Of a stretch of DNA of 64,000 bases, positions 31,106 through 50,360 are shown piece after piece. The notes below the pieces were generated by a model. It was not told where the DNA came from and did not search any database. It saw nothing but the letters and a program-made list of their open reading frames with translations. Position 1 is the stretch's first letter. The number at the start of each line of letters is the position of its first letter. Source of the DNA: an uncultured Alphaproteobacteria bacterium (GTDB taxonomy: Bacteria; Pseudomonadota; Alphaproteobacteria; ATCC43930; CGMCC-115725); the NCBI GenBank assembly GCA_963789025.1, contig CAWBIT010000004.1, forward strand, positions 253,041 through 317,040, in the 5' to 3' direction. The translations under genes were made by a program, and so were the position numbers.

Positions 31106-31945
31106 TCATCGAATATAACGTGATTTTGGCGAGTCGACATCCCGGTTTGATTGAAGACGCTCGATGTTCGCTTTGGCAGCCATGTCTGCCTGGCTGCCGG
31201 GAGCCAATTGCCCCACCCGCTCCCAATCTCGAAGGGCTCCCTCGTTATCGCCCTTCAGACGGCGGATGTTGCCGCGTTCCAGCACCGCCGGCGCGGAATT
31301 CGGCGCGCGCGCTATTGCCTTCTCGACATCGGCGAGCGCGGGGTCGAGCCGATCGAGGGCGCGGTTTGCCGAGGCGCGGTAGATCAGCGCGTCGACGCGC
31401 GACGGGTCCGCCTTCAAGACATGGTCGAGATCGGCTACTGCTTTGTCATAGTATCCCACCGATGCGGCCGCTTGCGCCCGGTCGATCAGCAGATCGAGGT
31501 CATTAGGCTCGAGGGCAACCGCCGCTCCGGCCGCCGCATAGGCGCGCGCCGGATCGCCAGCCAAGCCCCAGGCCTGCCCAGCCTGGTCGAGTACCTCGGC
31601 GCGCAACGCGGCCGGCGCCGTTATCGCTTGCGCCAGCGCTTCGAGGCGAACCGCCGCCTCCTTGTATTGCTTCAGGCCGATCAGTGCGACGGCGACGCAA
31701 TGATCGGCCGGATGCGCGCCGCCGCGCTCGTGCCAGCTCTGCCCGAGGCTGCGGGCCTCCACCGGATTTTGCCGGGCCAGCTTCATGCAGCGCTCATACG
31801 TCGCCGCCTCGGCCGCCGCGTCGCGTGGCGCAGCAGATTGCACGGGCGGCTCGGCTGCCGAGGCTTTCACCCACGCCACGAACAGCAGGCCGCACAACGC
31901 AAGAATCATCAAAGGATTGCGATTGCCCGAGGACAAGCTTATCAA
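31106..31945 (-). CDS. Exported tetratricopeptide-repeat protein
   Basis: Signal peptide LMILALCGLLFVAWVKASAAE followed by degenerate 34-residue Ala/Leu/Tyr-patterned repeats. Confidence 0.65.
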   Translation of the reverse strand: MISLSSGNRNPLMILALCGLLFVAWVKASAAEPPVQSAAPRDAAAEAATYERCMKLARQNPVEARSLGQSWHERGGAHPADHCVAVALIGLKQYKEAAVRLEALAQAITAPAALRAEVLDQAGQAWGLAGDPARAYAAAGAAVALEPNDLDLLIDRAQAAASVGYYDKAVADLDHVLKADPSRVDALIYRASANRALDRLDPALADVEKAIARAPNSAPAVLERGNIRRLKGDNEGALRDWERVGQLAPGSQADMAAKANIERLQSNRDVDSPKSRYIR

Positions 31946-31974: not shown

Positions 31975-33753
31975 ATGAGGGGATCGGTCGACCCGGTCGA
32001 GCATTCTCGAGGAAGTTCTGGCGGTGATCTGCTGAGAGGCCTCCGGCACTCCTGCGCCGTGGCCGGATTGGCCGCATGTCTTATGGCCGGCCTTCGAGCA
32101 GAGGCGGCCGCCCAAGTGATCCCCGAGACGCGCGGGCGCCCCTCCCCGCAGCTGCCGCCGGTTCAGCCGAGCCCATCCCCGCCGTCCAGTTTGACGGTGC
32201 CATTGCCGTCGCAGCCATCCGAAGGTGCACCGCTGGCGCAGGGCCCGCGGTTTGTCCTTCGCGATATCACGATCACCGGCAACACGGTCCTGGACCCAGC
32301 GGCGATCCGCGGTGTTGTCGACCCCTATCTCGGCAAGCCGGTGACCACCGCGGACCTCGAAGAAATTCGCCGGCAATTGACCTTGCTCTACATCAACCGC
32401 GGTTACATCAACTCGGGCGTGGTGATCCCGGATCAGAACGTTGTCAACGGCGTGGTTGCTTTTCGCGCCGTCGAAGGCCGGGTCAGCGGTATCGAGGTCA
32501 CCGGCACCGACCACTTCGATCCGGAATATTTCACCTCGCGCCTCGCCCGCGGCACCGAGCCTCCGTTTAATGTCGAGAATTTGGCTCGCGAGCAGCAAAT
32601 CCTGCTGCAAGACCCGCTGGTCAAGCGGCTCAACCTCGAGCTGCTGCCCGACCTCGAACCCGGCGAAGCGCGCCTTCATGCCGACGTTCTCGAGGGCAGC
32701 CGGTATTCGCTGAATGCTCAGATCGCCGATGATCAATCGCCGACCGTGGGCGCGGTGCGCGGTCAATTGCAGGGGTCATTCGCCAACATATTGGGTTTCG
32801 GCGATATTCTGAGCGCCCAATACGGCCGCAGCCAGGGTCTCAACGACGGGTATGTGGGTTATTCGGTGCCGATCGCCAGCGACGATACGCGGGTCAGCCT
32901 GCGCTACGACAAAAACGGCGTAGTGGTGATCACGCCGGAGCTCAGCCCGTTGAACACCACCAGTACCTTTTCGAGCATCGGTGTAGGGCTGAGCCGCCCC
33001 ATCTACCGAACCCCGGAAGAGACCTTTACGCTCGGCCTGAGCGTCGAAAGGCGGCAGCAGCAAACGTTTCTGCTCGGGATGCCGTTTCCCTTTACGGCCG
33101 GCGCCGAGCCCAACGGAAAGACGGTCGTGACGCCGGTGCGCCTCTACCAGGATTGGCTCGACCGTGACGCCGAGCACGCCTTTGCCGCCCGCTCGACGTT
33201 CAGCTTCGGGATCCAGACCTTGGGCGCCACCGTGATCGAGACGTCGCTTCCCGGCACTCCGACAGCGAAATTCTTCTCGTGGCTCGGCCAGGCACAGTAT
33301 GTGCGGCGGATCTACCAGGACTGGGAAATACTGCTCCGCTCCGACCTCCAGCTCGCCAACCGCCCGCTTTTTCAGATGGAGCAGATCGCGTTTGGCGGGC
33401 TCGGCTCGGTGCGTGGTTACCGCACCTATCTGACGATAACGGATGACGGATTTCTGGGATCAGCGGAATTGCGGGTCCCGGTCGGGCGGCTGCGGCTACC
33501 CTATCTCGCAGATTCGGATACCGCCGGAACCGTGCAAATCGTGCCGTTTTACGATTTTGCGAGGGCCTGGAACACCCTCCGGCCGACCCCGTATCCGCAG
33601 CAGATCTCGGGCGTCGGCGGCGGCGTGCGCTGGTATATCGGCTCCGGGATCACCGCGGAGTTCTATTACGCCAAAGCTCTGCGCCATGTCGATGTCGGCA
33701 ACTCGATCGAAGATCGCGGCATCTATTTCCGTCTAACCTCGGTCTTTTTTTAG
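31975..33753 (+). CDS. Two-partner-secretion transporter TpsB (ShlB/FhaC/HecB family, POTRA + beta-barrel)
   Basis: Start set at the ATG at 31975, preceded by GGAGGA. Signal peptide, a POTRA-like region (FVLRDITITGNTVL...LEEIRRQLTLLYINRGYINSGVVIPDQ) and a barrel ending ...GIYFRLTSVFF. Confidence 0.85.
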   Translation: MRGSVDPVEHSRGSSGGDLLRGLRHSCAVAGLAACLMAGLRAEAAAQVIPETRGRPSPQLPPVQPSPSPPSSLTVPLPSQPSEGAPLAQGPRFVLRDITITGNTVLDPAAIRGVVDPYLGKPVTTADLEEIRRQLTLLYINRGYINSGVVIPDQNVVNGVVAFRAVEGRVSGIEVTGTDHFDPEYFTSRLARGTEPPFNVENLAREQQILLQDPLVKRLNLELLPDLEPGEARLHADVLEGSRYSLNAQIADDQSPTVGAVRGQLQGSFANILGFGDILSAQYGRSQGLNDGYVGYSVPIASDDTRVSLRYDKNGVVVITPELSPLNTTSTFSSIGVGLSRPIYRTPEETFTLGLSVERRQQQTFLLGMPFPFTAGAEPNGKTVVTPVRLYQDWLDRDAEHAFAARSTFSFGIQTLGATVIETSLPGTPTAKFFSWLGQAQYVRRIYQDWEILLRSDLQLANRPLFQMEQIAFGGLGSVRGYRTYLTITDDGFLGSAELRVPVGRLRLPYLADSDTAGTVQIVPFYDFARAWNTLRPTPYPQQISGVGGGVRWYIGSGITAEFYYAKALRHVDVGNSIEDRGIYFRLTSVFF

Positions 33754-33786
33754 CGTGGCCACCGCAGGAGGTGTGTGCGGCCTGCG

Positions 33787-34533
33787 TCATCTTGCCTTGC
33801 TGGCTCCTGCGGTCTGGCGGTCGTACCTGGCCGGCTCGACCAGGCCGACCTCGTTCATCAGCGCATCCAAAGCGGCGTGCCGATCGAGGCCAGCCATCTC
33901 GGCGGCCGCAGCAACGGCGTCGTACCACAACCCGGCCTGCGCCAAGAGTGCGGCGCGACGGTCCGGCGGTGCAGCGCGCAGCGCGGCTGCGATTGTCGGC
34001 TCGGCAGTTGTGCGAACCAGGGAAGCGCTGGCGACGATGTCGCGCGAGCGCGCCTTGGGATTGAGGATGACCGACACCGACCAGGTATAGAGAACCCCCG
34101 GCTCCAATCGAACCGGATAGTCGGCGGTGCGGATGGAATACACGCCCGCCTCTCGCGGCGCAGGGATGTTGACCTCGAGTATCGGCTTGGGCTGGGTCGC
34201 GGCGCTGATCGTAAACTGGGTCGGCCAAGCGATCGGCTGCGACACAAAGAAATAGAGGGTCGGGGTCGCACTGGTCGTCAGACCGGTATGCTCGTCCGGA
34301 GCTAGAAGATCGATCGTCGGCAGCGGAACCGTCGCCTTTATGGTCCCCCGCGATGCACCGCCGACCCGGCCGCCGGGTGCGCCGCGCGGCGGCGGCTTGT
34401 AGGCCGGCTCCCCCGGCGGGGTTTCATCCTGGGCTGCTGGCGGTGCGTTGTTCTGCGCGAGCGCGGACGGCGGCGGCACCAGCCATATCGCTGCGATGGC
34501 GGCGGCCGCCAGCCTCCTAGTGAAGCACTGCAT
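33787..34533 (-). CDS. Exported DUF928-like protein
   Basis: Start at MQCFTRRLAAAAIAAIWLVPPPSALAQ (signal peptide) overlaps the CHAT stop (TGATG). The motifs YKPPPRGAPGGRVGGASRG and TPTLYFFV...GVLYTWSV match my recollection of DUF928; not verified by search. Confidence 0.6.
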   Translation of the reverse strand: MQCFTRRLAAAAIAAIWLVPPPSALAQNNAPPAAQDETPPGEPAYKPPPRGAPGGRVGGASRGTIKATVPLPTIDLLAPDEHTGLTTSATPTLYFFVSQPIAWPTQFTISAATQPKPILEVNIPAPREAGVYSIRTADYPVRLEPGVLYTWSVSVILNPKARSRDIVASASLVRTTAEPTIAAALRAAPPDRRAALLAQAGLWYDAVAAAAEMAGLDRHAALDALMNEVGLVEPARYDRQTAGASKAR

Positions 34534-36821
34534 CACAGCCAGTTGCCGATTAGCAGGAAGGGCGCCCAATAGGCCGGATGTGCATATCGCGGGTCGGCGG
34601 CCAGTGCGCGCTGGGCTCCTTGCAGCGCGTGGGCCTTCGACAGGGTGCCCGATTGCAGGCCACGGTAGAAGTCGACGACCAGTTCGCCGGCTGCCTTGTC
34701 GCTGATGTACCACAAGGTCGCGAGCGCACTGCGGGCTCCGGCTTTAAGAGCGACCCCGGCGAGGCCGAGCGCCGCCCGGTCGTCGCCGGAAGCCGTCTCG
34801 CACGCGCTCAGTATCAACAATTCGAGCGCCTTGTCGCGGCGTTCGCCGAATTTGATGTCCCGTTCCAGATCATCCATTGTCAGCTGACCATCGAAGGCAA
34901 GCACAAAGGTCTGGCTCGGGTCGTTGCCGAACTGTCCGTGCGAGGCGATGTGCACGATATTGTAAGGCACGCGCCTCAGCTCGGCCTCGAATCGCGCGCG
35001 GCTGAACTGGTCGTTGAGCAGCTCGTCTCCACCCTCGATTTCGTGCACCGCAGCGACTTCGGTGGCGACGTTGGGCAGATCGACATAACCCTGCACGCTT
35101 TTCGAGATGCCGAGCACAAGAGCCGTGCCGGGCGCTGCCTTCAAGGGTCTCGGATCGGTCAGGCGCATACTTGGGGCAATCGCCGTGGCATAGCGGTCCA
35201 TCAGGAACCCTTTGCCGTCGTGCAATGCCGCAAACGGGATCGTGCGCAACGTGTAATCGGGGACGATCACCAAAGTATCGATGTGGTGCGCGGCCAATAC
35301 CGGCTCCATTGGACGGATGAGCTGGTCGTAGAGCTGCCGCGCCGGCACCAGGTACTCGTTCGTCGTGCGCTTCTCCAGCAATTCGCGGAAGTGCTGAACC
35401 TCGTCGCGCAGGGTGATTTCGGGGATGGGGACGGTGAATTGCCGCTGCTCGTCGCCAAGGCTGACCAGCAGTTCGATCCGGTCCGGCAACGCAATCGGAT
35501 AGATTACCGCGGTGCCGGGGGCGATCGTCTCGATCGAGCGCTGCTTCGCCAGAAAGCTCGTGACGCAGGTGTCCCGGAAATAATCCTGCAGCTCGGTTTC
35601 CTTGAGTCGTTCGACGGTGTCGCGCGCTTCCCTGATCAGCGGCGCCGCCTGCGCCGGATCGGACGATGCCCGGCGCAACAGCAGGTCGCTGTATTCGAGG
35701 TAGACCGGGCCGAACGTGGTCAGGTACGAGGACCGGCCGTCGCGATACTCCACCGGGATGTCCTGACGCACCGATTGCAGTTCCGCGACCGCCCGGCGAT
35801 AGCTGGTCAGCGCCGCATCCGTCTCGCCGCGGCGCCGGGCGAGGCGCGCCCGCTGCCAGTCCCAGCGGAACGAAAGTTCGGGCGCTGAGGCTTGCTGGGC
35901 GGCAAACGCGGCCCGATCGGTCAAGTTCGCTGCTTCCTCCAGCCGGTTTTCCCGTTCGTAGAGCTGAGCCAGACCGCCTTGCGCCAATGACGAAAGGGTC
36001 GCGTTGTGGAGCGAGTCGGCGTTCCCCGCCGCGGCGCGGAAGGCGCGGGAAGCGACGGCTTGCGCATCGGCCGGGATGCTTCCTTCGCCCTCGAACACCG
36101 CGGAACCGGCCGAAACCAGGGCCATGCCGCGATTGTATGAAGGCGGCGACCGCTCGAGCGTGTCGACCGCTCGGGTTAGCAGTGCGGTCGCTTGGGTTGC
36201 ATCCTTGCGGCGCAGCGCGAGACGCGCGGCATTGGTTTCCGCAGTAGCGGCGAGCGCATCGTCATGCGCCGCTTCGGCGCTGGCTATCGCCTCGGCGTAA
36301 GCGGATGCGGCGTCTGCCGGACGTCCTGTCGAAGCGTAAAGATTGCCGAGGTCGTTGTTGCTCGCGGCGAGAATCGCAGGGTCGTGCAGTCGGCTGGCGA
36401 GGTCGCGCGCGCGTCTGAGCAACGGCTCGGCGACCGCAGTGCGGCGCGACATGAACGCCAGATTGCCGAGCGCTCCGCTGCTCGCCGCGATCAGTGGCTG
36501 GTCCCGGCTCTGCTCGGCCTTGGCAAGGGCGGCCTGAAGGTCGCTGCTGGCGTCGCGAAAATAACCCTCGACACGGTACGCCTCGCCGCGTCGCGCCAAG
36601 GCCTGAGCCTCGAGATCGGGGGCGACGTTGAGCCGGCACAAACGGATCGCCTCGGACCAAGCGCGGGTGGCCGCGACGATGTCCCCGGCACGAAAGGCCG
36701 CCGTCCCGCGCCCAAGGTAATCGAGTGCCGCGGCGCGGCCGCTCTCGACCTGCGCGGCCACCGGGGCAACGTAAAACAGAGACCCCGCTAGCAGCGCGGC
36801 CGGAAAGACGAGGCGGTTCAT
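34533..36821 (-). CDS. Exported TPR + CHAT-domain (caspase-fold) protease-like protein
   Basis: Signal peptide MNRLVFPAALLAGSLFYVAPVAAQ, N-terminal TPR-like repeats, and a C-terminal CHAT domain with His (VHIASHGQF) and Cys (LILSACETASG) of the catalytic dyad. The start overlaps the cyclase stop (ATGA). Confidence 0.85.
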   Translation of the reverse strand: MNRLVFPAALLAGSLFYVAPVAAQVESGRAAALDYLGRGTAAFRAGDIVAATRAWSEAIRLCRLNVAPDLEAQALARRGEAYRVEGYFRDASSDLQAALAKAEQSRDQPLIAASSGALGNLAFMSRRTAVAEPLLRRARDLASRLHDPAILAASNNDLGNLYASTGRPADAASAYAEAIASAEAAHDDALAATAETNAARLALRRKDATQATALLTRAVDTLERSPPSYNRGMALVSAGSAVFEGEGSIPADAQAVASRAFRAAAGNADSLHNATLSSLAQGGLAQLYERENRLEEAANLTDRAAFAAQQASAPELSFRWDWQRARLARRRGETDAALTSYRRAVAELQSVRQDIPVEYRDGRSSYLTTFGPVYLEYSDLLLRRASSDPAQAAPLIREARDTVERLKETELQDYFRDTCVTSFLAKQRSIETIAPGTAVIYPIALPDRIELLVSLGDEQRQFTVPIPEITLRDEVQHFRELLEKRTTNEYLVPARQLYDQLIRPMEPVLAAHHIDTLVIVPDYTLRTIPFAALHDGKGFLMDRYATAIAPSMRLTDPRPLKAAPGTALVLGISKSVQGYVDLPNVATEVAAVHEIEGGDELLNDQFSRARFEAELRRVPYNIVHIASHGQFGNDPSQTFVLAFDGQLTMDDLERDIKFGERRDKALELLILSACETASGDDRAALGLAGVALKAGARSALATLWYISDKAAGELVVDFYRGLQSGTLSKAHALQGAQRALAADPRYAHPAYWAPFLLIGNWL

Positions 36822-38902
36822 TTTTCGGTCATGACGATCAACGTGCCGCTTTCTCCGGCTTCGAGGCGCTGACAATGGAATGCGACGCACGGATCCTCGG
36901 GATATTCGCGATGCAGTGCCGCGAACTGCTCGGCAGTCTCGGGCAGCCCCGCCATCACCATTCGGAAAGCGGCCTCATAGCGGCCGATCCGGTCGCTTTC
37001 CAGATCCTCCGGCGCGAGCGGCTCGAAGACATCAGTTGCGGCGTGACGCCCTTTTACGACAAACGAGCCTATCGGGCGGAAGCGGTGGCGCTGCGCCTTG
37101 CCGACGATCTCCCCCGAAACACAGATCCGCGTGCCGATCGTCTTGTTCAATCCTTCGAGGCGCGATCCGGTGTTCAGCATATCGCCGAGCGCTGAATATT
37201 TCAGCCGGGAGCGGGTGCCAACGTTGCCAACCATCGCAACGCCAGTGTGGACCCCGATGCGGGTTTGGCCGAAATGGATGCCGCGGGCCTCCTGCTCGGC
37301 GCTGAAGCGGCGGGCGAACGCGTCGATCCCCAATGCGGCGCTGACCGCCCGGTCGGCGTGGTCCGGCTGGTCGACCGGCGCGCCGAAAAATGCGAGTACC
37401 GCATCCCCGATGAACTCATTCACCATGCCGCCTTCGGCAAAGATCGCCGCGCACACCCCGTCGAAATAATCGTTGCACACGGTTGCGAGAAATTCTGGTT
37501 CGACGGTCTCGGAGAATGTCGTGAACCCCGCGACGTCGGTGAACACTACCGAAATTTCCCGGCGCTCGCCGCCGAGCTTCGGCAGCGCCTCTGAAGCCAC
37601 CATTTGGGCAATGACCGCGGGCGGGAGATAATGTTCGAAGCTCTTGCGCAACAGCGCGCGAGCGCGGTTGCTGGCGGAGTACATGATCCGGTTCGTCAGC
37701 CCGGCCGAGCCGAGCCAGGCAATCGCAGCAGGCGCCGCCGGCAGCAGCAGGGCCATTCCGAAAGCTTGGTAGACGGTGCCGGCGAGTACCAACACGCCGA
37801 TGGCCGAGCCGCAGGCCGCCCGGATCGGGTGCCGGACGAGCAACCCGAGGGCCATGCCGGCTATTGCCCAGCCCCAGACCCACAAATCCTCGCTGCCGCG
37901 GGACAAACCGCGCAGGCTCGGAGCGCCGTCGATCGCCCCCCGGATCAACTGGTCGGCGATAAGCGCGTGCATGGTGATCCCCCATATCGGCTCTTCTCTG
38001 CCGAAGCCGGTGCCGAACGGGGTCGAGAAGGTATCCTTGACGCTTTCCGAGGTGACACCGATGAGAACGGCCCGCCCGCGGACCAGCGAGGCGGCATCAT
38101 CACCGCGCATGATTTCGCCGATGCTCTTCAATGGAAACCGGTGCGGACCGCCGTGATAATCGAGCAGCATTTGGTACCCGGCGCTGTCTAGCCGGATGTA
38201 GGGTCCGCGGCTGTCGTCGAGGGGAGCAATCAGCGCCTTGCCGAGGCGCAGCTGATCCCCCTCCGCGGGCACAGGCCTGATGTGATCAACAGCGAGATAG
38301 CCGAGAGCCAGGGCCATCCCCATGCTGGTGTAATTGTCGACGCCGTCATCGGCGTACAACAAGCCGCGCCGCACGACATTGCCCGGGTCGGTCACGACAT
38401 CGGCGAGGACGGCGCGGTCCGAACCGCGTAGAACCGCCGGAGGCGGGATCGCCCGTTTCGCGCCATCCTGCAATTTGAAGGTCCAGACAATTTCCTTGTG
38501 CTTGGCGAGAACCGCCGCGAGCCGCTCGGTGCCGGGCGGCTTCGGACGGTCGCGATAAATGTCGACACCGATGACCCGCGGGTGCCAGCCGGCGATCCGC
38601 TCCAACAGATCGGCGAGATCGCCGTCCTTCAGCGGCCAATCGAAGTCCTCGACATCGGCCTCGGTGCCGCCGACCAGAAGGACTCTGTTGCTCGGTGCGC
38701 TGCCGGCCCATGCCACCCGCAACCCGTCATAGATCAGGAACTCGAAGGGTTGCAGCCAGCCATGACCGCGAACCACGATGATCGCGGCGACTAGGATGTG
38801 CGCACCTATCAGCGCCTTGAAGCCGGCACCGCGCAAGGTCCGTATGATGCGGTCCCGAGCCGGGGCAAGCCGTCGTAGTGGGTCGATGACCGCGGCGGTC
38901 AT
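36818..38902 (-). CDS. CHASE2 sensor-domain class III nucleotide (adenylate/guanylate) cyclase
   Basis: An N-terminal TM segment, then a ~300-aa periplasmic CHASE2-like region (WPLKDGDLADLL...VIGVDIYRD...VLIGVTSESVKDTFSTP...ITMHA), then TM helices. Cyclase core: FTDVAGFT, EFIGDAVLAFFGAP, LGDMLNTGSRLE. Confidence 0.85.
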   Translation of the reverse strand: MTAAVIDPLRRLAPARDRIIRTLRGAGFKALIGAHILVAAIIVVRGHGWLQPFEFLIYDGLRVAWAGSAPSNRVLLVGGTEADVEDFDWPLKDGDLADLLERIAGWHPRVIGVDIYRDRPKPPGTERLAAVLAKHKEIVWTFKLQDGAKRAIPPPAVLRGSDRAVLADVVTDPGNVVRRGLLYADDGVDNYTSMGMALALGYLAVDHIRPVPAEGDQLRLGKALIAPLDDSRGPYIRLDSAGYQMLLDYHGGPHRFPLKSIGEIMRGDDAASLVRGRAVLIGVTSESVKDTFSTPFGTGFGREEPIWGITMHALIADQLIRGAIDGAPSLRGLSRGSEDLWVWGWAIAGMALGLLVRHPIRAACGSAIGVLVLAGTVYQAFGMALLLPAAPAAIAWLGSAGLTNRIMYSASNRARALLRKSFEHYLPPAVIAQMVASEALPKLGGERREISVVFTDVAGFTTFSETVEPEFLATVCNDYFDGVCAAIFAEGGMVNEFIGDAVLAFFGAPVDQPDHADRAVSAALGIDAFARRFSAEQEARGIHFGQTRIGVHTGVAMVGNVGTRSRLKYSALGDMLNTGSRLEGLNKTIGTRICVSGEIVGKAQRHRFRPIGSFVVKGRHAATDVFEPLAPEDLESDRIGRYEAAFRMVMAGLPETAEQFAALHREYPEDPCVAFHCQRLEAGESGTLIVMTEK

Positions 38903-38907
38903 CGGCT

Positions 38908-41900
38908 TCAGCCGCAGCGCATTGTCAGATGCGCCGTCGTTTGCACTGCGCCGCCATCCGCCTCGATGCCGCCTGCGCCCGGCGTCGGGTTGGGGGTGAC
39001 GTCGCGGCCGGCGATGTAGAGCGCTGGCAACGTTGCTTCCGGGTCCTGCGGCAGGCCGCCCCGGCCCGCCTCGACGAGGCTCGAAATCGGCCGGTCGCTG
39101 CGGGCCGCGCAGGCCTCGCGCAGAACCGCCGCCCGGCCGCGCAACTCGCTCGACAACACGACCAGGGCGCCGTTGACATCGACCCGCGGGCCATTGACCT
39201 CGACCGTCCCGGAGATCCCGAGCTGCGAAGTTGCCGATACGACGCTGTCCGAAGAAGGGATAAACAAACCAGCGGTGATCGTGATGTTGCCGCCATGGCC
39301 TTCGATCGCCTGGGCGATGATGCTGCTGTGATCGAGGATCATGAGCTGCGGGTCGATCGCGATGTTGCCGCCGTTCCCGGTCTCGCCCTTGACCGAGGTG
39401 GTGATCTCGCTGCTCACCAGATAGAGGAAATCGCGGATGTGCAACGTGATGTTGCCGCCGCTGGCCGTCGACGTTGCGGCTTCGGTCGAAATCGCCGCAC
39501 CGTTGTTCATCAACAAGCGGCCTGCCGAGACAGTGATCGACCCCGCATCGCCGCTGCCGGTCGATCGCGCGGTGATTTGTGGTCCGCGATCCGGCAGCAC
39601 GATGTCGGTAGCGACCATGACATCGACATCGCCACCCTTGCCGGGACCCGCGGTCGAGCTGGCGATCTGCGCGCCGCCCTCTACGGTCAGGCTGTTGGCG
39701 TTTACCGTCACCGAGCCGCCCGGACCCGATTGCGGCCCGATCGCCGATGCGGCGATCTGGGTGTTTGGATCGCCGCCGCCGTTGACGAGCAGTGCGCCGG
39801 GCGTCGTCACATTGACCGAGCCGCCGGCGCCGGTACCCGCCGTCGTACTGGAGATCTCGGCCCCCGACACCAGCGCGATCTGCGGCGCCGTCACCATCAC
39901 CGACCCGGCATTGCCGCTCGCCGTCGAACTAGCGGAGGCGATGATCCCGCTCCCGGCGTCGGTCAAGCTCAATGGTCCCTGGGCGGTGACCTGCACGGTG
40001 CCCCCATTGCCTGCTCCGGCCGTCGTCGAGGTCACTCTCGCACCACCGGACAGCGCGATCGCGCCGCCCGCCGCCAGCACCACTTCCCCGGCCGCGCCGG
40101 TCGAGCCCGCCTCGGCCGAGGCGGTGATCCCGCTCGCGCCGCCCGGCCCGGCGCCCGACAATCTCACATTGTTCGCCACGGTCACCGCGACATCGCCGCC
40201 TTGGCCGGGCCCGGCGGTGGTGGCGGCGATCTGCGCGCCGCCTGCGATGGCGAGGGCATTGGCCGCTACCGTCACCGAACCTCCGGGCCCCGATTGCGCG
40301 CCCGTCGCCGAGGCGGCGATCTGGGTATTGGAGACGCCGGCGCCGTCGAGCATCAGCGTGCCGGGCGTCGTCACATCGACCGAGCCGCCGGCGCCGGTCC
40401 CCGCAGTGGTGCTGGAGATCTCGGCCCCCGACACCAGCGCGATCTGCGGCGCCGTCACCATCACCGACCCGGCATTGCCGCTCGCCGTCGAACCAGCCGA
40501 GGCGATGATCCCGCTCCCGGTATCGGTCAAGCTCAATGGCCCCTGGGCGGTGACCTGCACGGTGCCGCCATTGCCTGCGCCGGCCGTCGTCGAGGTGACT
40601 CTCGCACCACCGGACAGCGCGAGTGCGCCGCCCGCCGCCAGCACCACTTCCCCCGCCGCACCGGTCGAGCCCGCCTCGGCCGAGGCGGTGATCCCGCTCG
40701 CGCCGCCCGGCCCGGTGCCCGACAATGTCACATTGTTCGCCACGCTCACCGCGACATCGCCGCCTTGGCCGGGCCCGGCGGTGGTGGCGGCGATCTGCGC
40801 GCCGCCTGCGATGGTGAGGGCATTGGCCGCTACCGTCACCGAACCTCCGGGCCCCGATTGCGCGCCCGTCGCCGAGGCGGCGATCTGGGTATTGGAGACG
40901 CCGGCGCCGTCGAGCATCAGCGTGCCGGGCGTCGTCACATCGACCGAGCCGCCGGCGCCGGTCCCCGCAGTGGTGCTGGAGATCTCGGCCCCCGACACCA
41001 GCGCGATCTGCGGCGCCGTCACCATCACCGACCCGGCATTGCCGCTCGCCGTCGAACCAGCCGAGGCGATGATCCCGCTCCCGGTATCGGTCAAGCTCAA
41101 TGGCCCCTGGGCGGTGACCTGCACGGTGCCGCCATTGCCTGCGCCGGCCGTCGTCGAGGTCACTCTCGCACCACCGGACAGCGCGAGGGCGCCGCCCGCC
41201 GCCAGCACCACTTCCCCCGCCGCACCGGTCGAGCCCGCCTCGGCCGAGGCGGTGATCCCGCTCGCGCCGCCCGGCCCGGTGCCCCACAATGTCACATTGT
41301 TCGCCACGCTCACCGCGACATCGCCGCCTTGGCCGGGCCCGGCGGTGGTGGCGGCGATCTGCGCGCCGCCTGCGATGGTGAGGGCATTGGCCGCTACCGT
41401 CACCGAACCTCCGGGCCCCGATTGCGCCCCCGTCGCCGAGGCGGCGATCTGGGTATTGGAGACGCCGGCGCCGTCGAGCATCAGCGTGCCGGGCGTCGTC
41501 ACATCGACCGAGCCGCCGGCGCCGGTCCCCGCCGTCGTGCTGGAGATCTCCGCCCCCGACACCAGCGCGATCTGCGCCGCCGCCACCATCACCGACCCGG
41601 CGTTGCCGCTCGCCGTCGAGCTCGCCGAAGCGATGATCCCGCTGCCGGCTTGGCTCAAGCTCAGCGATCCCCGCGCGGCGACCTGCACAGTGCCGCCATC
41701 GCCTTGCCCCGCCGTGCCCGAGCTGACGAGCCCGCCGCCGGTGACGACGATGTCCTGACCGGCCAGAGTTACTGCGCCGGCGCGGCCAGTGCTTCCGGGC
41801 TCCGCATTGGTCAAGAGACCGGTGCGCACCTGCGTTCCCGTGCCGTCGATGACGACACCGCCTCGCGCGGTGACATTGAGATCCCCGCCATTGCCCGAAC

Positions 41901-44900
41901 CAAAGGTCAGGCTCTGGATCTCACCACCATTCGAAAGCGACAGGCTGTCGGAGCCGACTGCCACCGTGCCCGCGTTCCCGCCGCCGAAATTGGCGCTGGA
42001 CGCGATGCTGGCGCCAAACCTCGGCGTGCCGGCGCCGTCGATGACAAGCTTGCCCGACGCGTTTACCGAGACTTCTCCGGCGGCGCCGTTGCCAAAGGTC
42101 GAGGTGGAAATCACCCCGCTGTTGAGGATCGAGACGTTGCCGGCATTGACGGTTATATGCCCGGCGTTGCCGCCGTTGGGATCGAGAGTGCGGGCAATAA
42201 TTCCGGCCGGCACCGCGGCACTCGGGTTGGCGATCCCATCGATCACCAGGTCGCCCGCCAGATTGACCATGATGTCGCCGCCGGCGCCTTGGCCGACGGT
42301 GGAGGCCGAGACCTCGCCGCCATTGAAAATGGCGAGCGAGCCGGCGCTGACAGTCACCGCGCCGGCATTTCCGCCGCCGGTTCCCGAGGCCGAAGTGATA
42401 CCGGTGACGTTGTTCTGCGCAGTTCCGTCGATCGAAAGCGGTCCGGCAATCGCGACAGTGACATTGCCACCCGCACCATTTCCGAAGGTCGAAGCCGAGA
42501 TCGACCCGTCCTGGGTAATCGCGAGCGAGTTGCCGGTGACCTGGACATTGCCCCCCGCGCCGGCGGCGTAGGTCGAGGCGGAGATCATTCCGCCATTGCT
42601 CAACCCCAATACTCCGGCGGCGACCTGAACATCGCCGCCCGCGCCGGCGCCGAACGTCGAGGCGGAGATCTGCCCGCCGTTGGTGAGCGCCAGCGAACCG
42701 GCGGTGACCCGAACGTCTCCCGCGTTTCCTGGGTTGAACCCCGACTCCGAGGAAATGCCGGTAGACAGGTTCTGCCCGCGGCCATCGATCGACAACGCAC
42801 CGGCAACATTGACCGTGACGCTTCCGGCGCTCCCGGTCCCGCCCAACGAGTTTACCGAGATCAGCCCGTTCGTTACGATGCTGAGACTGCCCGCCGCGAT
42901 CGTGATGTTGCCCGCGCTGCCCGTGCTGTCGGTCAGCGCAGTAATACCCGTCGGGACGGTCGACGACGTGCCGTCGATCGACAGCGCGCCGGCGACAGTC
43001 ACAGCAATATCGCCGCCCTTGCCCATTCCGAAGGTATCAGTCGCAATCTGGCCATTGGGGCTCATCGACAGTGAGCCGGCGGTGACCGAGATGTTGCCCG
43101 CGCTGCCCGTGCTGTCGGTCAGCGCGGTAATACCCGTCGGGACGGTCGATGACGTGCCGTCGATCGATATCGCCCCGGCGACGGTCACGGCAATGGTGCC
43201 ACCTTTGCCGGTCCCGAACGTATCGGTCGTGATCTGCCCGTTTGGTGTGATTGACAACGATCCGGCATTGACGGTGATGTTGCCGGAGTTTCCGGTGGCT
43301 GCTCCAGTCTTGAGCGGAAGAGAAATCGCACTGATGCCAGTTAGAACGGTCTGCGAAACGCCGTCGATCGACAGGGCGCCGGCGACGTTGACGGCAATGC
43401 TGCCGCCGTTGCCCAAATTCGTCGTGTCGGTGGTGATCTGGCCATCGGGGCCGATGGACAAGGTCCCGGCGGCGATCGTTACAATGCCGCCGTTTCCGGG
43501 TCCTGTGGTGTCGCTGGAAATGCCACCCGAACTTGCCAGCTGCAACGCCCCGGCATTGATGTTGACATCGCCGGCATTGCCGAGCCCGAAGGCGTCGCTC
43601 GATATTGTGCCGCCGTTGATGATCGACATATTGCCCGCGGCGACGCTCACGCTGCCGGCGTTGCCTTTGCTTCCCGGTTCTGCATCCGTGGTTATTCCGG
43701 TCTCGAAATTGGGATTGGCGTTCGTCCCGTCGATGGTCAGCGCGCCGGCGACATTGACCGATAGGTTGCCGGCGTTACCCGTTCCGAAGGTGCCGCTCGA
43801 GACCTGACCGTTGGTGACGATCTTCAAGCTCCCGGCATTGACGGTGACATTGCCGGCGCTGCCGTTACTGACTGAACTGGCGTTGTTGGACGCAATGCCC
43901 GTCAATTGGGTCGCCGAGGTGCCGTCAATCGACAATGTCCGGGCGACGCTGACCGAGACATTTCCCGAATTTCCAGATCCGAACGTGGCGCTGGCGATCT
44001 CCCCGTTGGTGACGATCGACAAATCGCCGGCGGTGACGGTTATGTTGCCGGCGTTCTTTGCGCCGGGCAGGAGTGTCGTGGCGCGGATCCCGGTCGTCGT
44101 CGACAAGGACCCGGCGCCGTTTATCGAGAGGTTGCCGCCGACCTGGACATTGACGTCGCCGCCCGCCCCCAAACCGATCGTCGACGCGGAAATCTGCCCG
44201 GCATTGACGAGCGATAGAGAGCCGGCGTTAACCTGCACCGAGCCCGCATTCCCGCTGCTTCCGGGGTTGGCTTGAGACAGAATACCGGCCTGAAAGACCG
44301 TCGAGGTCCCGTCGATGGACACTGCGCCGGGAGCGCTCAGCGAGACATTGCCGGCGTTGCCCGGCCCGGCGGTGAAGCTGATGATTTCGCCATTGGCCAG
44401 GATGGTCAGGGTACCGGCGGAGACCGCCACATCGGAGGCGGTCCCCCGCCCGGTCGTGACCGCGCCGATTGCGGTCAGAGCTGTGGGGTTGGCGGTGCCG
44501 TCGACTACGACAGTATTGGCATTGACCGCGACCGGTCCGCTATTGCCGGTGCCCTGGGTGATGCTCGCCAGCTCGGCGCCGTTCGTCAGGGTCAGCTGGC
44601 CGGTCGATGCGGCGAGCGGGCCCGCACTCCCCGGCCCGGTGCTGCTGGTCAGCACCAGGCTGGCATCGGCCGAGATGGCGCCGGCTGGCGCGGTCGCAAT
44701 GGAGATCCCCGCGCCGCCGCCGCTACCCAACGCCGCCGCGTGAACAGAGGTGCCATTGGACAGAGCTACCTGCGTCTCGCCGCGCAGCGCGATGACCCCG
44801 CCGGGACCCGAACCGTAATTGTCGGCGCCGATCTGGCTGGCATCGATCGTCAATGCCCCGGCGTGGATGAAGACGCTGCCGCCGGCGCCGAGGACGCCCG

Positions 44901-45666
44901 GATTGCCGACATCGAGTTTGGAGCCGCCCTTGATGTCGACCGACCCGAAATTGCCGACCGTCAAGGCCGGGGTGTTGCGTGGGTCGACCGGCACCTCGCC
45001 GGTGCCGGCGGCGCTCGTCACGTGGATCGTGCCGCCGGGCGCAGCGAGGGTCGCGGCGGAGTTGATCGAGACGGGTCCGGCGACCAGACCGAGGGTCCCC
45101 GACACCGGTCCCAGGCTGCTGCCGTTGACCGTGATCGCGGCCGGCCTCGACGTCAGAAATCCGAAAGCCGCCGGAGGCGCCGCGCTCAACGTGCTGGCGC
45201 CGGGGTTGGTCGCCTGAAACTTGGCACCGTCCGACATCTTGACGTAGTCGGCGGTCGAGGCATGAAAGCTGCCCGAGACATTGACCGTCGCGTTCGGCCC
45301 GAACACGATGCCGTTGGGGTTTATCAGGTAGAGGTTGGCGCCGGCGATGTTGGACTGAATCCGCCCGTCGATCGACGACAGATTGCCGCCGGTCACCCGG
45401 CCGATGATATTATTGACGGTCGCAGGCCCGCTGAACGCGGCGCTTTCGCCGGTCGACAGACCAAACTGTCCGAAGCTGTGGAAAAGGTTGCTGCCGACCT
45501 GCTTGCCGAGATTGGCGGTGATCGAGTAGTTAGGCCCGACCAGGGTCTGGGCCGGCGAGAAACGGCCGTCGACAGTGATGTGCTGACCCGCCGCCAACCG
45601 CGGCGTCAACGCCGCAAGCGAGCAAGCCGCGACAACAGCAAAAAACAGACCGGGTCTCAACGCCAC
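38908..45666 (-). CDS. Two-partner-secretion exoprotein TpsA (filamentous-haemagglutinin N-terminal domain, 2252 aa)
   Basis: Signal peptide and TPS domain (NLFHSFGQFGL...NNIIGRVTGG...LYLINPNGIVFGPNA). It is followed by >2000 aa of Gly/Ala/Ser/Thr/Asn-rich beta-helix-type repeats. GTG start; the stop is 5 nt before the cyclase start. Confidence 0.9.
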   Translation of the reverse strand: MALRPGLFFAVVAACSLAALTPRLAAGQHITVDGRFSPAQTLVGPNYSITANLGKQVGSNLFHSFGQFGLSTGESAAFSGPATVNNIIGRVTGGNLSSIDGRIQSNIAGANLYLINPNGIVFGPNATVNVSGSFHASTADYVKMSDGAKFQATNPGASTLSAAPPAAFGFLTSRPAAITVNGSSLGPVSGTLGLVAGPVSINSAATLAAPGGTIHVTSAAGTGEVPVDPRNTPALTVGNFGSVDIKGGSKLDVGNPGVLGAGGSVFIHAGALTIDASQIGADNYGSGPGGVIALRGETQVALSNGTSVHAAALGSGGGAGISIATAPAGAISADASLVLTSSTGPGSAGPLAASTGQLTLTNGAELASITQGTGNSGPVAVNANTVVVDGTANPTALTAIGAVTTGRGTASDVAVSAGTLTILANGEIISFTAGPGNAGNVSLSAPGAVSIDGTSTVFQAGILSQANPGSSGNAGSVQVNAGSLSLVNAGQISASTIGLGAGGDVNVQVGGNLSINGAGSLSTTTGIRATTLLPGAKNAGNITVTAGDLSIVTNGEIASATFGSGNSGNVSVSVARTLSIDGTSATQLTGIASNNASSVSNGSAGNVTVNAGSLKIVTNGQVSSGTFGTGNAGNLSVNVAGALTIDGTNANPNFETGITTDAEPGSKGNAGSVSVAAGNMSIINGGTISSDAFGLGNAGDVNINAGALQLASSGGISSDTTGPGNGGIVTIAAGTLSIGPDGQITTDTTNLGNGGSIAVNVAGALSIDGVSQTVLTGISAISLPLKTGAATGNSGNITVNAGSLSITPNGQITTDTFGTGKGGTIAVTVAGAISIDGTSSTVPTGITALTDSTGSAGNISVTAGSLSMSPNGQIATDTFGMGKGGDIAVTVAGALSIDGTSSTVPTGITALTDSTGSAGNITIAAGSLSIVTNGLISVNSLGGTGSAGSVTVNVAGALSIDGRGQNLSTGISSESGFNPGNAGDVRVTAGSLALTNGGQISASTFGAGAGGDVQVAAGVLGLSNGGMISASTYAAGAGGNVQVTGNSLAITQDGSISASTFGNGAGGNVTVAIAGPLSIDGTAQNNVTGITSASGTGGGNAGAVTVSAGSLAIFNGGEVSASTVGQGAGGDIMVNLAGDLVIDGIANPSAAVPAGIIARTLDPNGGNAGHITVNAGNVSILNSGVISTSTFGNGAAGEVSVNASGKLVIDGAGTPRFGASIASSANFGGGNAGTVAVGSDSLSLSNGGEIQSLTFGSGNGGDLNVTARGGVVIDGTGTQVRTGLLTNAEPGSTGRAGAVTLAGQDIVVTGGGLVSSGTAGQGDGGTVQVAARGSLSLSQAGSGIIASASSTASGNAGSVMVAAAQIALVSGAEISSTTAGTGAGGSVDVTTPGTLMLDGAGVSNTQIAASATGAQSGPGGSVTVAANALTIAGGAQIAATTAGPGQGGDVAVSVANNVTLWGTGPGGASGITASAEAGSTGAAGEVVLAAGGALALSGGARVTSTTAGAGNGGTVQVTAQGPLSLTDTGSGIIASAGSTASGNAGSVMVTAPQIALVSGAEISSTTAGTGAGGSVDVTTPGTLMLDGAGVSNTQIAASATGAQSGPGGSVTVAANALTIAGGAQIAATTAGPGQGGDVAVSVANNVTLSGTGPGGASGITASAEAGSTGAAGEVVLAAGGALALSGGARVTSTTAGAGNGGTVQVTAQGPLSLTDTGSGIIASAGSTASGNAGSVMVTAPQIALVSGAEISSTTAGTGAGGSVDVTTPGTLMLDGAGVSNTQIAASATGAQSGPGGSVTVAANALAIAGGAQIAATTAGPGQGGDVAVTVANNVRLSGAGPGGASGITASAEAGSTGAAGEVVLAAGGAIALSGGARVTSTTAGAGNGGTVQVTAQGPLSLTDAGSGIIASASSTASGNAGSVMVTAPQIALVSGAEISSTTAGTGAGGSVNVTTPGALLVNGGGDPNTQIAASAIGPQSGPGGSVTVNANSLTVEGGAQIASSTAGPGKGGDVDVMVATDIVLPDRGPQITARSTGSGDAGSITVSAGRLLMNNGAAISTEAATSTASGGNITLHIRDFLYLVSSEITTSVKGETGNGGNIAIDPQLMILDHSSIIAQAIEGHGGNITITAGLFIPSSDSVVSATSQLGISGTVEVNGPRVDVNGALVVLSSELRGRAAVLREACAARSDRPISSLVEAGRGGLPQDPEATLPALYIAGRDVTPNPTPGAGGIEADGGAVQTTAHLTMRCG
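39640..41760 (-). repeat. ~3.75 copies of a 564-bp (188-codon) in-frame tandem repeat inside tpsA
   Basis: The landmark GAGGCGATGATCCCGCTCCCGG recurs at 39935, 40499 and 41063, with a diverged copy at 41627, giving a period of exactly 564 bp. The central copies differ at only a few bases. Array limits are approximate. Confidence 0.9.
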
Positions 45667-45701
45667 GCGGAACCGTTCCTGCGAAATATGATCGTTGGAC
45701 T

Positions 45702-46439
45702 ATGCGGGACGTGACCGTTTCTGTCCAGGCAGCCTTGACCGAGAGGGCCGAATCTCTTGTCCGGAAGTGTGCCCGGTCGCGGCGGTCGGTTCTCCTTGCG
45801 CTCATGCTGGTTGCTTTGTGCGGCGCGGTGCGCGGGCAGACCCCGACCGGCGATGATGCCGCTTCGGAGCAGCACGGTCCGCCTGCCGTCATCGAAGGCT
45901 TCCGGCAGGCGCGGTTCGGAATGAATGACGAGCAAGTAAGGCAGGCGATCCGCAAAGACTTCCCGGAGCAGGCCGGAAAGCTGGCGCGCGCTATCCATCC
46001 AACCGAAAAAACCCTTGTCCTGTCGCTTACCGTCGCCGATTTGTTGCCGCACAGCGGCAACGCCCGCATCTCCTACATCTTGGGGTACCGCTCGAAAAAG
46101 CTCGGCCAGGTGAATATCGTCTGGTCGAGCGACGGAAGCACTGCCGGCGACGAGACGATCGTCGGCGCCGCGAATTCCCTGCGCGACTACTTCTCGACCG
46201 AAAATTTCAAGCCGGACAGCGTGGTCGCCAACCATCAGCTGGCGCCCGACGCAATCCTGGTATTTCGCGCCAGCGACGAGCAGCAGCGGACCATCCTTCT
46301 GGTGCTGAGCGGCGTCGCCGCTGCCGCGCGCGCCGAGGACAAGAAAGCCCCGAAGCCGCCGCCCCTGAGCCTCGAGCTTTCGTATATCGAGGACCCGGCC
46401 CACCCCGACGTGTTCCGCATCAGCCGGGGCCAATTCTGA
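45702..46439 (+). CDS. Hypothetical exported/membrane-anchored protein, divergent from tpsA
   Basis: 245-aa ORF with a hydrophobic segment VLLALMLVALCGAVRG. No domain recognised. Confidence 0.45.
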   Translation: MRDVTVSVQAALTERAESLVRKCARSRRSVLLALMLVALCGAVRGQTPTGDDAASEQHGPPAVIEGFRQARFGMNDEQVRQAIRKDFPEQAGKLARAIHPTEKTLVLSLTVADLLPHSGNARISYILGYRSKKLGQVNIVWSSDGSTAGDETIVGAANSLRDYFSTENFKPDSVVANHQLAPDAILVFRASDEQQRTILLVLSGVAAAARAEDKKAPKPPPLSLELSYIEDPAHPDVFRISRGQF

Positions 46440-49027: not shown

Positions 49028-50315
49028 ATCCATTGGCCGAATGACGATCAGGGCCGCACTACCCGCCCGCGCGACATTGGCGAGCACCTGACCAAAGCCG
49101 TGCGCGCCGTCGTGCGGCATAACCCTTCATTGTCGGGCGTCATTGACGTCGTGGATTTCGCCGCCGAGCGCAACGGCGAGCGGGACATCAACCCGGCCAA
49201 ATTGCGCGAAGTCGTCGAAACCTTTTCCGATCCGCGTTATCGGCTAGGCCTCGCCGACGTCCAACCCGATTTTCTCGGCCGCTCCTGTGAATACCTGCTG
49301 CGGAAATTCGCCGAAGGCTCGGGAGGGAGCGCCGGCGAACATTTTACGCCAACAGAAGTCGGCTTCCTGATAGCGCACATCATGCGCCCGAAGCCCGGTG
49401 AGGAGTGCCACGACTATGCGTGCGGGTCGGCGGGGCTGCTTGTGAAGCTTCAGCTCGTCGCGCGAGAACTCGATCCAACCAGCAAGGTCCCGCTCAGGCT
49501 CTATGGCCAGGAATTGATGGCCGAGAGTTACGCCGTCGCGCAGATGAACGCGATCATTCACGACATGAGTGTCGAGATCGCTCGCGGCGACACGATGATC
49601 AATCCGAAATTCAAGACGGCAGACAGCAAGATTCGCACCTACGACATCGTCGTGGCCAACCCCATGTTGGAACCAGGATTTCAATCCTGACATCTTCGCC
49701 GATGACCCGTTCGACCGGTTCCGCACCCAGGGCGGCATCACCACCGGCAAAGGCGATTGGGCGTGGCTGCAGCACACGATGGCCTCCCTCAACGAGCGCG
49801 GCCGGGCGGCGGTCGTGCTCGACACCGGCGCGGTGACGCGCGGCTCAGGCTCGAAGAACGAAGACCGGGAGCGCAATATCCGCAAATGGTTCGTCGATCG
49901 CGACCTGATCGATGGTGTGATCCTCTTGCCCGACAACCTGTTCTACAACACGTCAGCCGCCGGCGTGATCGTCGTGCTGTCGAAGCGCAAGCCGGCAGCG
50001 CGCAAGGATCGCATCGTGCTGCTTAACGCGAGCCGCCGGGTAGCAAAGGGCCAGCCAAAAAATTTCATTCCCGACGCCGACATCCGCCCGCTCGCCGCTG
50101 CTTTTTTGAAGGGCGAGTCGGTCGAGGGCGAGATCGCCGTCATTACGCGACAGCAGGCCGAGGAGGCGGATTACAACCTCAGCCCGAGCCGGTGGGTCGC
50201 GCAAAATTCAGCAGATCCTCGCGCCTCGATTGCTGAACTTACGAAGGTTTTAGAGTCAGTAACCAAGCAGCAATCCGAACTGGATCAAACCCTTTTCGCC
50301 GTTCTCCGGTCGCTT
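49028..50315 (+). pseudogene. hsdM: Type I R-M DNA methyltransferase hsdM, 5'-truncated and frameshifted
   Basis: [20 protein letters not shown] (AdoMet motif I) and VVANPM(W) (motif IV) are present. Deleting one of the two T's at 49667-49668 restores ...[22 protein letters not shown]...[12 protein letters not shown]...YNLSPSRWV. The N-terminal HsdM_N region is missing: an in-frame stop lies at 48965-48967 and no homology is seen before about 49070. Confidence 0.75.
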
Positions 50316-50360
50316 CAGCAGAAACGAGGCCAAGACTCCCAAGAGAGCGAGACCGACACT

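Follow-up and report, generated by a model that had tools for sequence, protein, structure and literature searches.

Two-partner secretion systems, CHASE2 receptors and CHAT proteases are each known from described systems, and the gene cluster analysed here brings them together with a protein of the family DUF928. The cluster lies in a 64,000-nt stretch of DNA from an uncultured alphaproteobacterium (the whole stretch is called the window, and coordinates are window positions unless another locus, such as L009, is named) and encodes five products: TpsA, a fibre of the two-partner secretion (TPS) type; TpsB, an outer-membrane transporter; a CHASE2 receptor with a class III nucleotidyl cyclase domain; a cysteine protease in which tetratricopeptide repeats (TPRs) precede a CHAT domain; and the DUF928 protein. 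Every domain family in it has precedent, and the combination of these known parts is undescribed but widespread. We propose, with a probability of about 0.5, that the five-gene set is a widespread envelope signalling module in which the state of the fibre and of the protease is reported to CHASE2.

Among TPS systems, the closest described relative is FhaB/FhaC of Bordetella, where the C-terminal part of FhaB is held in the periplasm (PMC8263021). Both systems have a TPS domain, a POTRA/ShlB-type TpsB, a long beta-helical passenger and a conserved C-terminal region distinct from the fibre, and a dedicated protease is plausible for the module. However, the tail of the module TpsA is a Cys-flanked stretch of 70 amino acids (aa) with a GRGG-LP motif, whereas the FhaB prodomain has about 1200 aa, and the protease linked to the module is a caspase-fold TPR-CHAT protein, whereas the FhaB proteases are DegP, CtpA and SphB1. 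Moreover, the module TPS pair is genetically tied to a CHASE2 receptor and DUF928, and no characterised TPS system is so tied.

The window receptor resembles Cya2 (sll0646) of Synechocystis PCC 6803 in its CHASE2 domain, transmembrane segments and class III cyclase, and in the Glu at the nucleotide-specificity position; the specificity pairs differ in the second residue (Glu/Ser in the window, Glu/Gly in Cya2). No ligand or partner protein of Cya2 is given in the accessible literature. CHASE2 is a common bacterial sensor domain, and the same literature identifies no ligand for it outside the NsrA pathway of Sinorhizobium meliloti. In that pathway (NsrA-CyaK/CyaD1/CyaD2), inner-membrane CHASE2 cyclases receive a signal of protein nature via an outer-membrane beta-barrel protein, and the cAMP then works via a Crp-like regulator (PMC7529298, PMC13001267). 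The neighbours of cyaD1 in S. meliloti are clr, a FecR-family gene and a Sel1 gene; TpsA, CHAT and DUF928 are absent there. The general logic of the module, from an outer-membrane component to an inner-membrane receptor with regulated proteolysis, has precedent.

TPR-CHAT proteases include Csx29 of the type III-E CRISPR 'Craspase' and separase. Like these, the module protease has TPRs ahead of a caspase-fold CHAT domain that bears a His/Cys dyad. Unlike the cytoplasmic Csx29, which is encoded together with gRAMP/Cas7-11 and its substrate Csx30, it carries a signal peptide or a lipobox and is predicted to be periplasmic; since CHAT proteases are usually discussed as cytoplasmic, this exported clade is unusual. 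We do not place it with Craspase, as no CRISPR genes were found nearby, its neighbours are TPS, CHASE2 and DUF928 genes, and it had no PADLOC match.

No paper combining DUF928 with CHAT, CHASE2 with the CHAT domain and hemagglutinin, or the CHAT domain with hemagglutinin was found, subscription journals lying outside the coverage of the search. Within the searchable literature, so limited, the gene set was thus without an existing description, as an earlier note made from the sequence of this DNA had supposed. The sole paper found to name DUF928 mentions in passing a CHASE2/DUF928/WD40 cluster in Nostoc punctiforme, and fusions of a caspase with CHASE2 have been pointed out in another setting, related to TRADD-N.

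Gene order and recurrence of the five families

The five genes of the cluster are as follows.

38908-45666, minus strand: tpsA, GTG start; Gly/Ala/Ser/Thr-rich beta-helical TPS-type exoprotein, 2252 aa (open reading frame (ORF), Pfam TPS, TIGR01901)
36818-38902, minus strand: CHASE2 receptor with class III nucleotidyl cyclase output, 694 aa (Pfam)
34533-36821, minus strand: TPR-CHAT cysteine protease, predicted exported, 762 aa (Pfam CHAT and TPR families)
33787-34533, minus strand: DUF928 protein, 248 aa (Pfam DUF928)
31975-33753, plus strand: tpsB, ShlB/FhaC-type outer-membrane transporter, 592 aa (Pfam POTRA_2, ShlB, Omp85; same gene call in the source contig)

The minus-strand genes run head to tail in the order tpsA, CHASE2 cyclase, CHAT and DUF928, and tpsB converges on them from the plus strand, its stop codon 33 nt from that of DUF928. 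The TGA stop of tpsA is followed after 5 nt by the ATG of the cyclase gene at 38902, the cyclase and CHAT genes overlap in an ATGA, and the stop of CHAT shares a TGATG with the start of DUF928, which fixes the extent of the DUF928 gene. The gene coordinates and junctions that the earlier note had given were all recovered by the ORF and junction check, as were the motifs HIASHGQF, LSACETASG and GRGGLPQDP. Its domain assignments passed a profile hidden Markov model check (TPS, CHASE2, Guanylate_cyc, CHAT, DUF928, POTRA_2 and ShlB), and the Pfam matches of all five products were above the curated cut-offs. The N-termini of TpsA, CHAT, DUF928 and TpsB are hydrophobic and end in AAG/AAQ/ALAQ/AAAQ, which is Ala-X-Ala-like; by inspection and hydropathy scan they fit Sec signal peptides, in line with the Sec signals that had been read in the first three.

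DUF928 served as the anchor of a genome scan, being smaller and less promiscuous than the other four families. A pattern from a DUF928 alignment, applied to one genome per species, gave 429 candidate stretches, of which 391 were confirmed. The best 79 of these 391 loci were compared over up to 10 kb on each side, and the families were counted with iterated profiles built from the window's own domains. Because many contigs end within the cluster, the counts over 79 loci are lower bounds; they are listed below with those for the loci having at least 9 kb on both sides.

CHAT near DUF928: 62/79 loci; 22/25 loci flanked by 9 kb or more on each side
CHASE2 near DUF928: 56/79 loci; 21/25
Cyclase domain near DUF928: 57/79 loci; 20/25
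TpsA-like fibre near DUF928: 45-47/79 loci by profile; 20/25
TpsB near DUF928: 52/79 loci; 17/25
All five families near DUF928: 34/79 loci; 13/25

Subsets of the five families occurred in many more loci than the 34 with the full set. As an internal control, the commonest non-module family was present in 16 of the 79 loci, and the flanks were otherwise unconserved. The loci came from Stellaceae, which include the closest named relatives of the window, other Alphaproteobacteria, Burkholderiales, Gallionellaceae, several Gammaproteobacteria and Desulfobacterota, and also from Nitrospirota, Nitrospinota, Rokubacteria/Methylomirabilota, Verrucomicrobiota, Entotheonella and more. In addition, two cyanobacterial plasmids carry, by RefSeq annotation, ShlB/FhaC/HecB, CHASE2, filamentous hemagglutinin N-terminal, CHAT and DUF928 proteins.

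At least 10 gene orders were found among the module loci. The commonest was a co-directional block of TpsA, TpsB, CHAT, CHASE2-cyclase and DUF928 (11 loci), and the window order with its convergent tpsB is typical for Stellaceae. In 38 loci the gene immediately upstream of DUF928 encoded the CHASE2 cyclase, and in 24 it encoded CHAT. A relative with 72% DUF928 identity kept the four-gene core, with a different downstream flank and no adjacent tpsB. That the five families recur at 32-45% protein identity in shuffled order indicates a functional module. The neighbourhood comparison suggested in the earlier note was thereby carried out: the linkage is kept in relatives across many phyla, and its view of one functional unit rather than four neighbours is strongly supported by the co-occurrence in shuffled orders.

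The locus of a species representative with 90% DUF928 identity (L009, 4402-12625) has genes for a reverse transcriptase and a large serine recombinase upstream of DUF928. Its tpsB is broken into three ORFs, tpsA, cyclase and CHAT were not found within 10 kb upstream, and the module there appears decayed or disrupted.

Properties of the five products

The domains and motifs mapped on the five genes, all on the minus strand, are the following.

45586-45666: signal-peptide-like N-terminal segment of TpsA, VALRPGLFFAVVAACSLAALTPRLAAG (by inspection of the translation, with hydropathy scan)
44911-45528: TPS secretion domain of TpsA (PF05860, aa 47-252)
39611-41866: four tandem 564-nt (188-aa) repeats in tpsA, 73% G+C (repeat search; end coordinate extrapolated from the copy spacing)
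38911-39111: conserved C-terminal tail of TpsA, Cys2186 ... SSLVEAGRGGLPQDP ... Cys2251-Gly, with GRGGLPQDP at 39040-39066 (cross-phylum comparison)
37853-38794: CHASE2 domain, predicted periplasmic, with hydrophobic segments on either side (Pfam, aa 37-350)
37037-37561: cyclase catalytic domain (Pfam, aa 448-622; residue mapping)
34542-35345: CHAT domain (Pfam, aa 493-760), catalytic His in HIASHGQF (34929-34952) and Cys in LSACETASG (34785-34811)
34342-34401: DUF928 N-terminal motif YKPPPRGAPGGRVGGASRGT, family consensus Y-x-PP-x-RGAP-x-x-R-V-GGGTRG (48-sequence alignment)

TpsA matched Pfam TPS at 6.6e-36, and its NCBIfam match was to the generic filamentous-haemagglutinin N-terminal domain alone (TIGR01901, 3.6e-20). 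An NPNG-type motif stands at aa 116, within LINPNGIVFG (aa 113-122). TpsB matched POTRA_2 (7.7e-20), ShlB (1.7e-18) and Omp85. Judged by this TPS domain with its NPNG-type motif and by the nearby POTRA/ShlB transporter, tpsA and tpsB are predicted to form a two-partner secretion (type Vb) pair. The four repeat copies in tpsA are spaced at 564 nt and partly near-identical (protein 12-mer offsets of 188, 376 and 564); because one relative's TpsA has 1679 aa against 2252 aa in the window, the length of the fibre probably varies with the number of repeats.

The last approximately 70 residues of TpsA follow the pattern C-x(7-13)-SS[FL]-x3-G[RK][GDE][GS]-[LIVM]P-x2-P, after which comes a variable stretch, and the second Cys lies 1-8 residues from the end in most lineages. 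Across 30 diverse sequences, the first Cys (C134), G149 and R150 never varied. A Pfam search placed no family on this region. The tail is conserved from Alphaproteobacteria to Cyanobacteria, in whose proteins the pattern is still recognisable, which bears out the earlier association of the GRGGLP motif with this TpsA subfamily. In the AlphaFold model the beta-helix stops about 90 residues before the C-terminus, a helix bears the first Cys, and the GRGG-LP motif falls in a low-confidence, extended stretch after this helix (predicted local distance difference test score (pLDDT) of the tail below 50). This stretch is probably disordered, and its modelled form is one that would suit a short linear motif which a partner binds or cuts.

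The CHAT protein matched PF12770 at 8e-60, preceded by TPRs. The His/Cys dyad, earlier judged intact, was confirmed, and both residues were invariant in 57 of 57 module CHAT domains. The window protein starts with the signal-peptide-like MNRLVFPAALLAGSLFYVAPVAAQ, and of the 48 orthologues whose N-terminus is intact, 44 carry a hydrophobic signal ahead of their TPR region, either of Sec type or, in Desulfobacterota, as a lipobox (e.g. VLAGC). On these features the protease is predicted to be active and extracytoplasmic. CHAT peptidases belong to clan CD (caspase fold), whose members have strict P1 specificity and in many cases cut after Arg; the invariant Arg residues in the TpsA and DUF928 motifs are therefore candidate cleavage sites. 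In a sequence search against the PDB, the TPR part alone found matches, and no solved CHAT structure was matched.

Two fusions involving the protease were considered and set aside. A 1417-aa ORF of locus L054 (5651-9901) joins TPR-CHAT, CHASE2 and cyclase; as a possible Rosetta-stone fusion it was non-recurrent and not used as evidence, the 120 best homologues in a database search with this ORF (to 79% identity) all being stand-alone TPR-CHAT proteins of 780-940 aa. A candidate TpsA-CHAT fusion in L050 was discarded, since its ORF crosses a masked (N) stretch.

The DUF928 protein matched PF06051 at 5.9e-31 (108 bits, curated cut-off 26), and the family counts 3874 clusters at 50% identity (E<=1e-3). 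It is built of a signal peptide, a Pro-rich linker, an RG-rich motif, an Ig/FN3-like beta-sandwich and a helical C-terminal part, with a mean pLDDT of 87 in the AlphaFold model. Y46, P48, P49, R51, G52, P54 and R63 were near-invariant in 48 diverse sequences. Structure searches of the PDB and of viral models gave just weak FN3/Ig-like matches, and thus the fold yields no function. Duplication of DUF928 is frequent: tandem DUF928 genes, two or three, were seen in several loci (including L034, L038, L049, L051 and L052), and some database proteins of 460-500 aa hold two DUF928 units (among P0248-P0258).

The receptor matched Pfam CHASE2 at 5.5e-44 and Guanylate_cyc at 1.6e-17. In the hydropathy scan, transmembrane-like segments at about aa 25-46 and aa 340-400 flank CHASE2, which fits the periplasmic loop that the earlier note had drawn; in this layout and in the class III cyclase domain that follows, the protein agrees with CHASE2 receptor cyclases of the Cya2/CyaD1 type. 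The cyclase domain has metal-binding Asp residues in FTDVAGF and NEFIGD, Asn and Arg in MLNTGSR, and the specificity pair Glu496/Ser570. Both Asp were invariant in 54 of 54 aligned module cyclases covering those positions, and the transition-state Asn and Arg in all 55 rows of the alignment; the catalytic residues that had been called intact are thus present and conserved throughout the module. From these residues the window cyclase is predicted to be active.

Among solved structures, that of the CHASE2-linked guanylyl cyclase Cya2 is closest to the catalytic domain (2w01, 2.5e-28). The specificity residue of the module cyclases (L012-L087) differs by lineage: Asp is commonest (27), followed by Lys (10), Glu and Gln (7 each) and Arg (2), with Glu in the window and its Stellaceae relatives. 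The substitution E488K turns Cya2 from a guanylyl into an adenylyl cyclase (PMC5995499). Because the window Glu aligns with the E488 position, the enzyme is possibly GTP-preferring, and the neutral 'cyclic nucleotide' is the safe wording for its product. The specificity pairs Asp/Thr and Gln/Val, also seen among the module cyclases, are unusual.

The cytoplasmic output differs between lineages. On a Pseudanabaena plasmid, the module CHASE2 protein ends in HATPase_c (histidine-kinase ATPase) in place of the cyclase, and on a Nostoc flagelliforme plasmid it has no cyclase domain and adjoins a response regulator. That the periplasmic parts are constant and the cytoplasmic outputs exchangeable speaks for CHASE2 itself working with the periplasmic partners. 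Genes for cyclic nucleotide (cNMP)-binding proteins stood beside the module in 16 loci (including L020, L023, L027, L029, L031, L048, L053, L054, L063, L065, L071 and L072). The binding domain was fused to glutaminase-STAS in 8 loci, and other fusions were to an MMPL transporter, a metallo-beta-lactamase-fold hydrolase, a sigma-54 activator, a patatin phospholipase and a Ser/Thr kinase. These neighbours support a real cNMP output. The cyclic-nucleotide output of the earlier note is therefore supported for the cyclase-bearing members, with their invariant catalytic residues and cNMP-binding neighbours; it is not a fixed property of the module, given the HATPase_c on one cyanobacterial plasmid.

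Proposed mechanism and alternatives

According to the proposed mechanism, TpsB would export the beta-helical fibre TpsA to the cell surface, and the Cys-flanked, probably unstructured tail (…C…SSF…GRGG-LP…C) would remain in the periplasm. There it would meet the caspase-fold TPR-CHAT protease and DUF928, with its Ig-like domain, helical part and Arg/Gly-rich motif. With its periplasmic CHASE2 domain, the inner-membrane receptor would sense the state of this assembly, occupied or CHAT-cleaved, and turn it into a cytoplasmic output, here a cyclic nucleotide from the Cya2-like class III cyclase with its guanylyl-cyclase-like Glu. We infer the periplasmic retention of the tail, the cleavage of TpsA and/or DUF928 by CHAT, and the sensing of a cleavage product by CHASE2, on which the direction of signal flow depends.

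If the mechanism is true, two-partner secretion gains a signalling role and an exported periplasmic caspase-fold protease is described, and the module would give a role to the large DUF928 family. It names three constant extracytoplasmic candidates for partners of CHASE2, namely the TpsA tail, the exported TPR-CHAT protease and DUF928. Since its carriers include soil, sediment, freshwater and cyanobacterial lineages, whatever function the module has would be of broad reach. A more specific form, which we regard as doubtful, holds that the CHASE2 ligand is a protein made within the envelope and not a small molecule: the Arg/Gly-rich tail of TpsA and/or the N-terminal motif of DUF928, exposed or released by the protease upon engagement, pulling or damage of the fibre. 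If true, it would be a bacterial counterpart of protease-activated receptor signalling and would provide a ligand class for CHASE2.

Several observations weigh against a signalling module of this kind. The gene linkage would fit a CHASE2 that regulates the fibre just as well as one that senses it, and no cNMP-binding protein is encoded in the window. TpsA, CHAT and DUF928 occur without CHASE2 within 10 kb in 3 of the 25 fully flanked loci (L045, L047 and L061), DUF928 stands alone in a few loci, and tpsB is non-adjacent in some close relatives. At the low confidence of the tail, the AlphaFold model establishes neither disorder nor a Cys2186-Cys2251 disulfide. And then, the single fusion ORF of L054 may be a frameshift or an assembly error.

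The alternative that survives best, though we consider it rather less probable, is that a regulator lies beside its regulon. CHASE2 would sense an unrelated small-molecule or envelope cue, and its cyclic nucleotide or phosphorelay would control the expression or secretion of the adhesin; CHAT would be only the protease for maturation or release of TpsA, in the way that periplasmic and surface proteases act on FhaB, and DUF928 a chaperone, inhibitor or co-substrate. The same linkage data fit this arrangement, and the three loci without a nearby CHASE2 suggest that the secretion and protease part can stand alone. Moreover, the FhaB prodomain is documented to undergo regulated degradation in the periplasm (PMC8263021), and second messengers have been reported to control secretion in the TPS system ExlBA (PMC8472254). 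However, the sensor is always CHASE2 across phyla while the output changes between cyclase and kinase, as would be expected if CHASE2 contacts periplasmic partners but not if any sensor could serve, and DUF928 most often comes directly after the CHASE2 gene. The cNMP-binding neighbours, which include enzymes and transporters besides transcription factors, also sit badly with a simple adhesin switch.

A conflict or defence system, either contact-dependent inhibition (CDI)-like toxin delivery or phage-sensing abortive infection with a caspase-like protease and a Pycsar-like cyclase, is improbable. CHAT/caspase proteases and class III cyclases are known from defence systems, the cyclase domain matched PADLOC PycC models (up to 2.4e-21), one locus has a cNMP-patatin neighbour, and the set is found on cyanobacterial plasmids. 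Nevertheless, the hallmarks of CdiA/CdiB/CdiI are absent, as the earlier note had already remarked: a motif scan of TpsA found no VENN or related pre-toxin motif, there is no polymorphic toxin or variable toxin tip, the C-terminus being conserved across phyla, and the position directly downstream of tpsA, where a small immunity gene might stand, is taken by the cyclase gene. CHAT, TpsA, TpsB and DUF928 had no PADLOC match, and the protease carries an export signal and is not cytoplasmic. As for Pycsar, the PycC matches reflect the shared cyclase fold, and Cya2 is the better match. Pycsar pairs a stand-alone PycC cyclase with an adjacent cNMP-binding effector bearing a TM or TIR domain; the window cyclase is part of a membrane receptor with CHASE2, and no gene for a cNMP-binding protein is present in the 64-kb window. 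The cNMP-binding neighbours elsewhere are mostly metabolic or regulatory (glutaminase-STAS, MMPL, sigma-54 activator, kinase). Finally, that five unrelated envelope genes are adjacent by chance can be dismissed as very improbable: tpsB does lie on the opposite strand and the promoter and terminator scans were uninformative, but the minus-strand genes are joined by overlapping start and stop codons or a 5-nt gap, the full set or its subsets recur across phyla in shuffled order, and 32-45% cross-phylum protein identity is not that of a single mobile element recently spread.

Flanking genes and other window features

Further features next to the cluster are listed here.

45702-46439, plus strand: divergent ORF of 245 aa, N-terminus hydrophobic, no family match (Pfam search)
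45699-45727, minus strand: weak sigma-70-like site 33 nt upstream of the tpsA start, the sole one on the operon strand (consensus scan: 3 sites against 1.9 expected by chance)
31106-31945, minus strand: TPR protein gene, divergent from tpsB
29507-31060, minus strand: PAS-HisKA-HATPase kinase gene, after the TPR gene

The product of the 245-aa ORF shares 55% identity with that of the gene in the equivalent place of a relative, in which the other flank is different, and L017 has the gene too. Possibly it is a lineage-specific accessory gene and a sixth component. The TPR gene and the PAS-histidine kinase gene were considered as module members and rejected. They are syntenic in the two closest relatives only (L009 and L010), and therefore this pair is probably outside the module.

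Elsewhere in the window, the ORF at 49779-51008 (plus strand) combines the C-terminal part of an N6 DNA methylase domain with a type I restriction specificity (HsdS) domain, and may be a truncated or fused remnant of a type I restriction-modification system. Between 16001 and 18000, the G+C content dips locally to 0.596 against about 0.64, with a strongly negative GC skew (-0.133).

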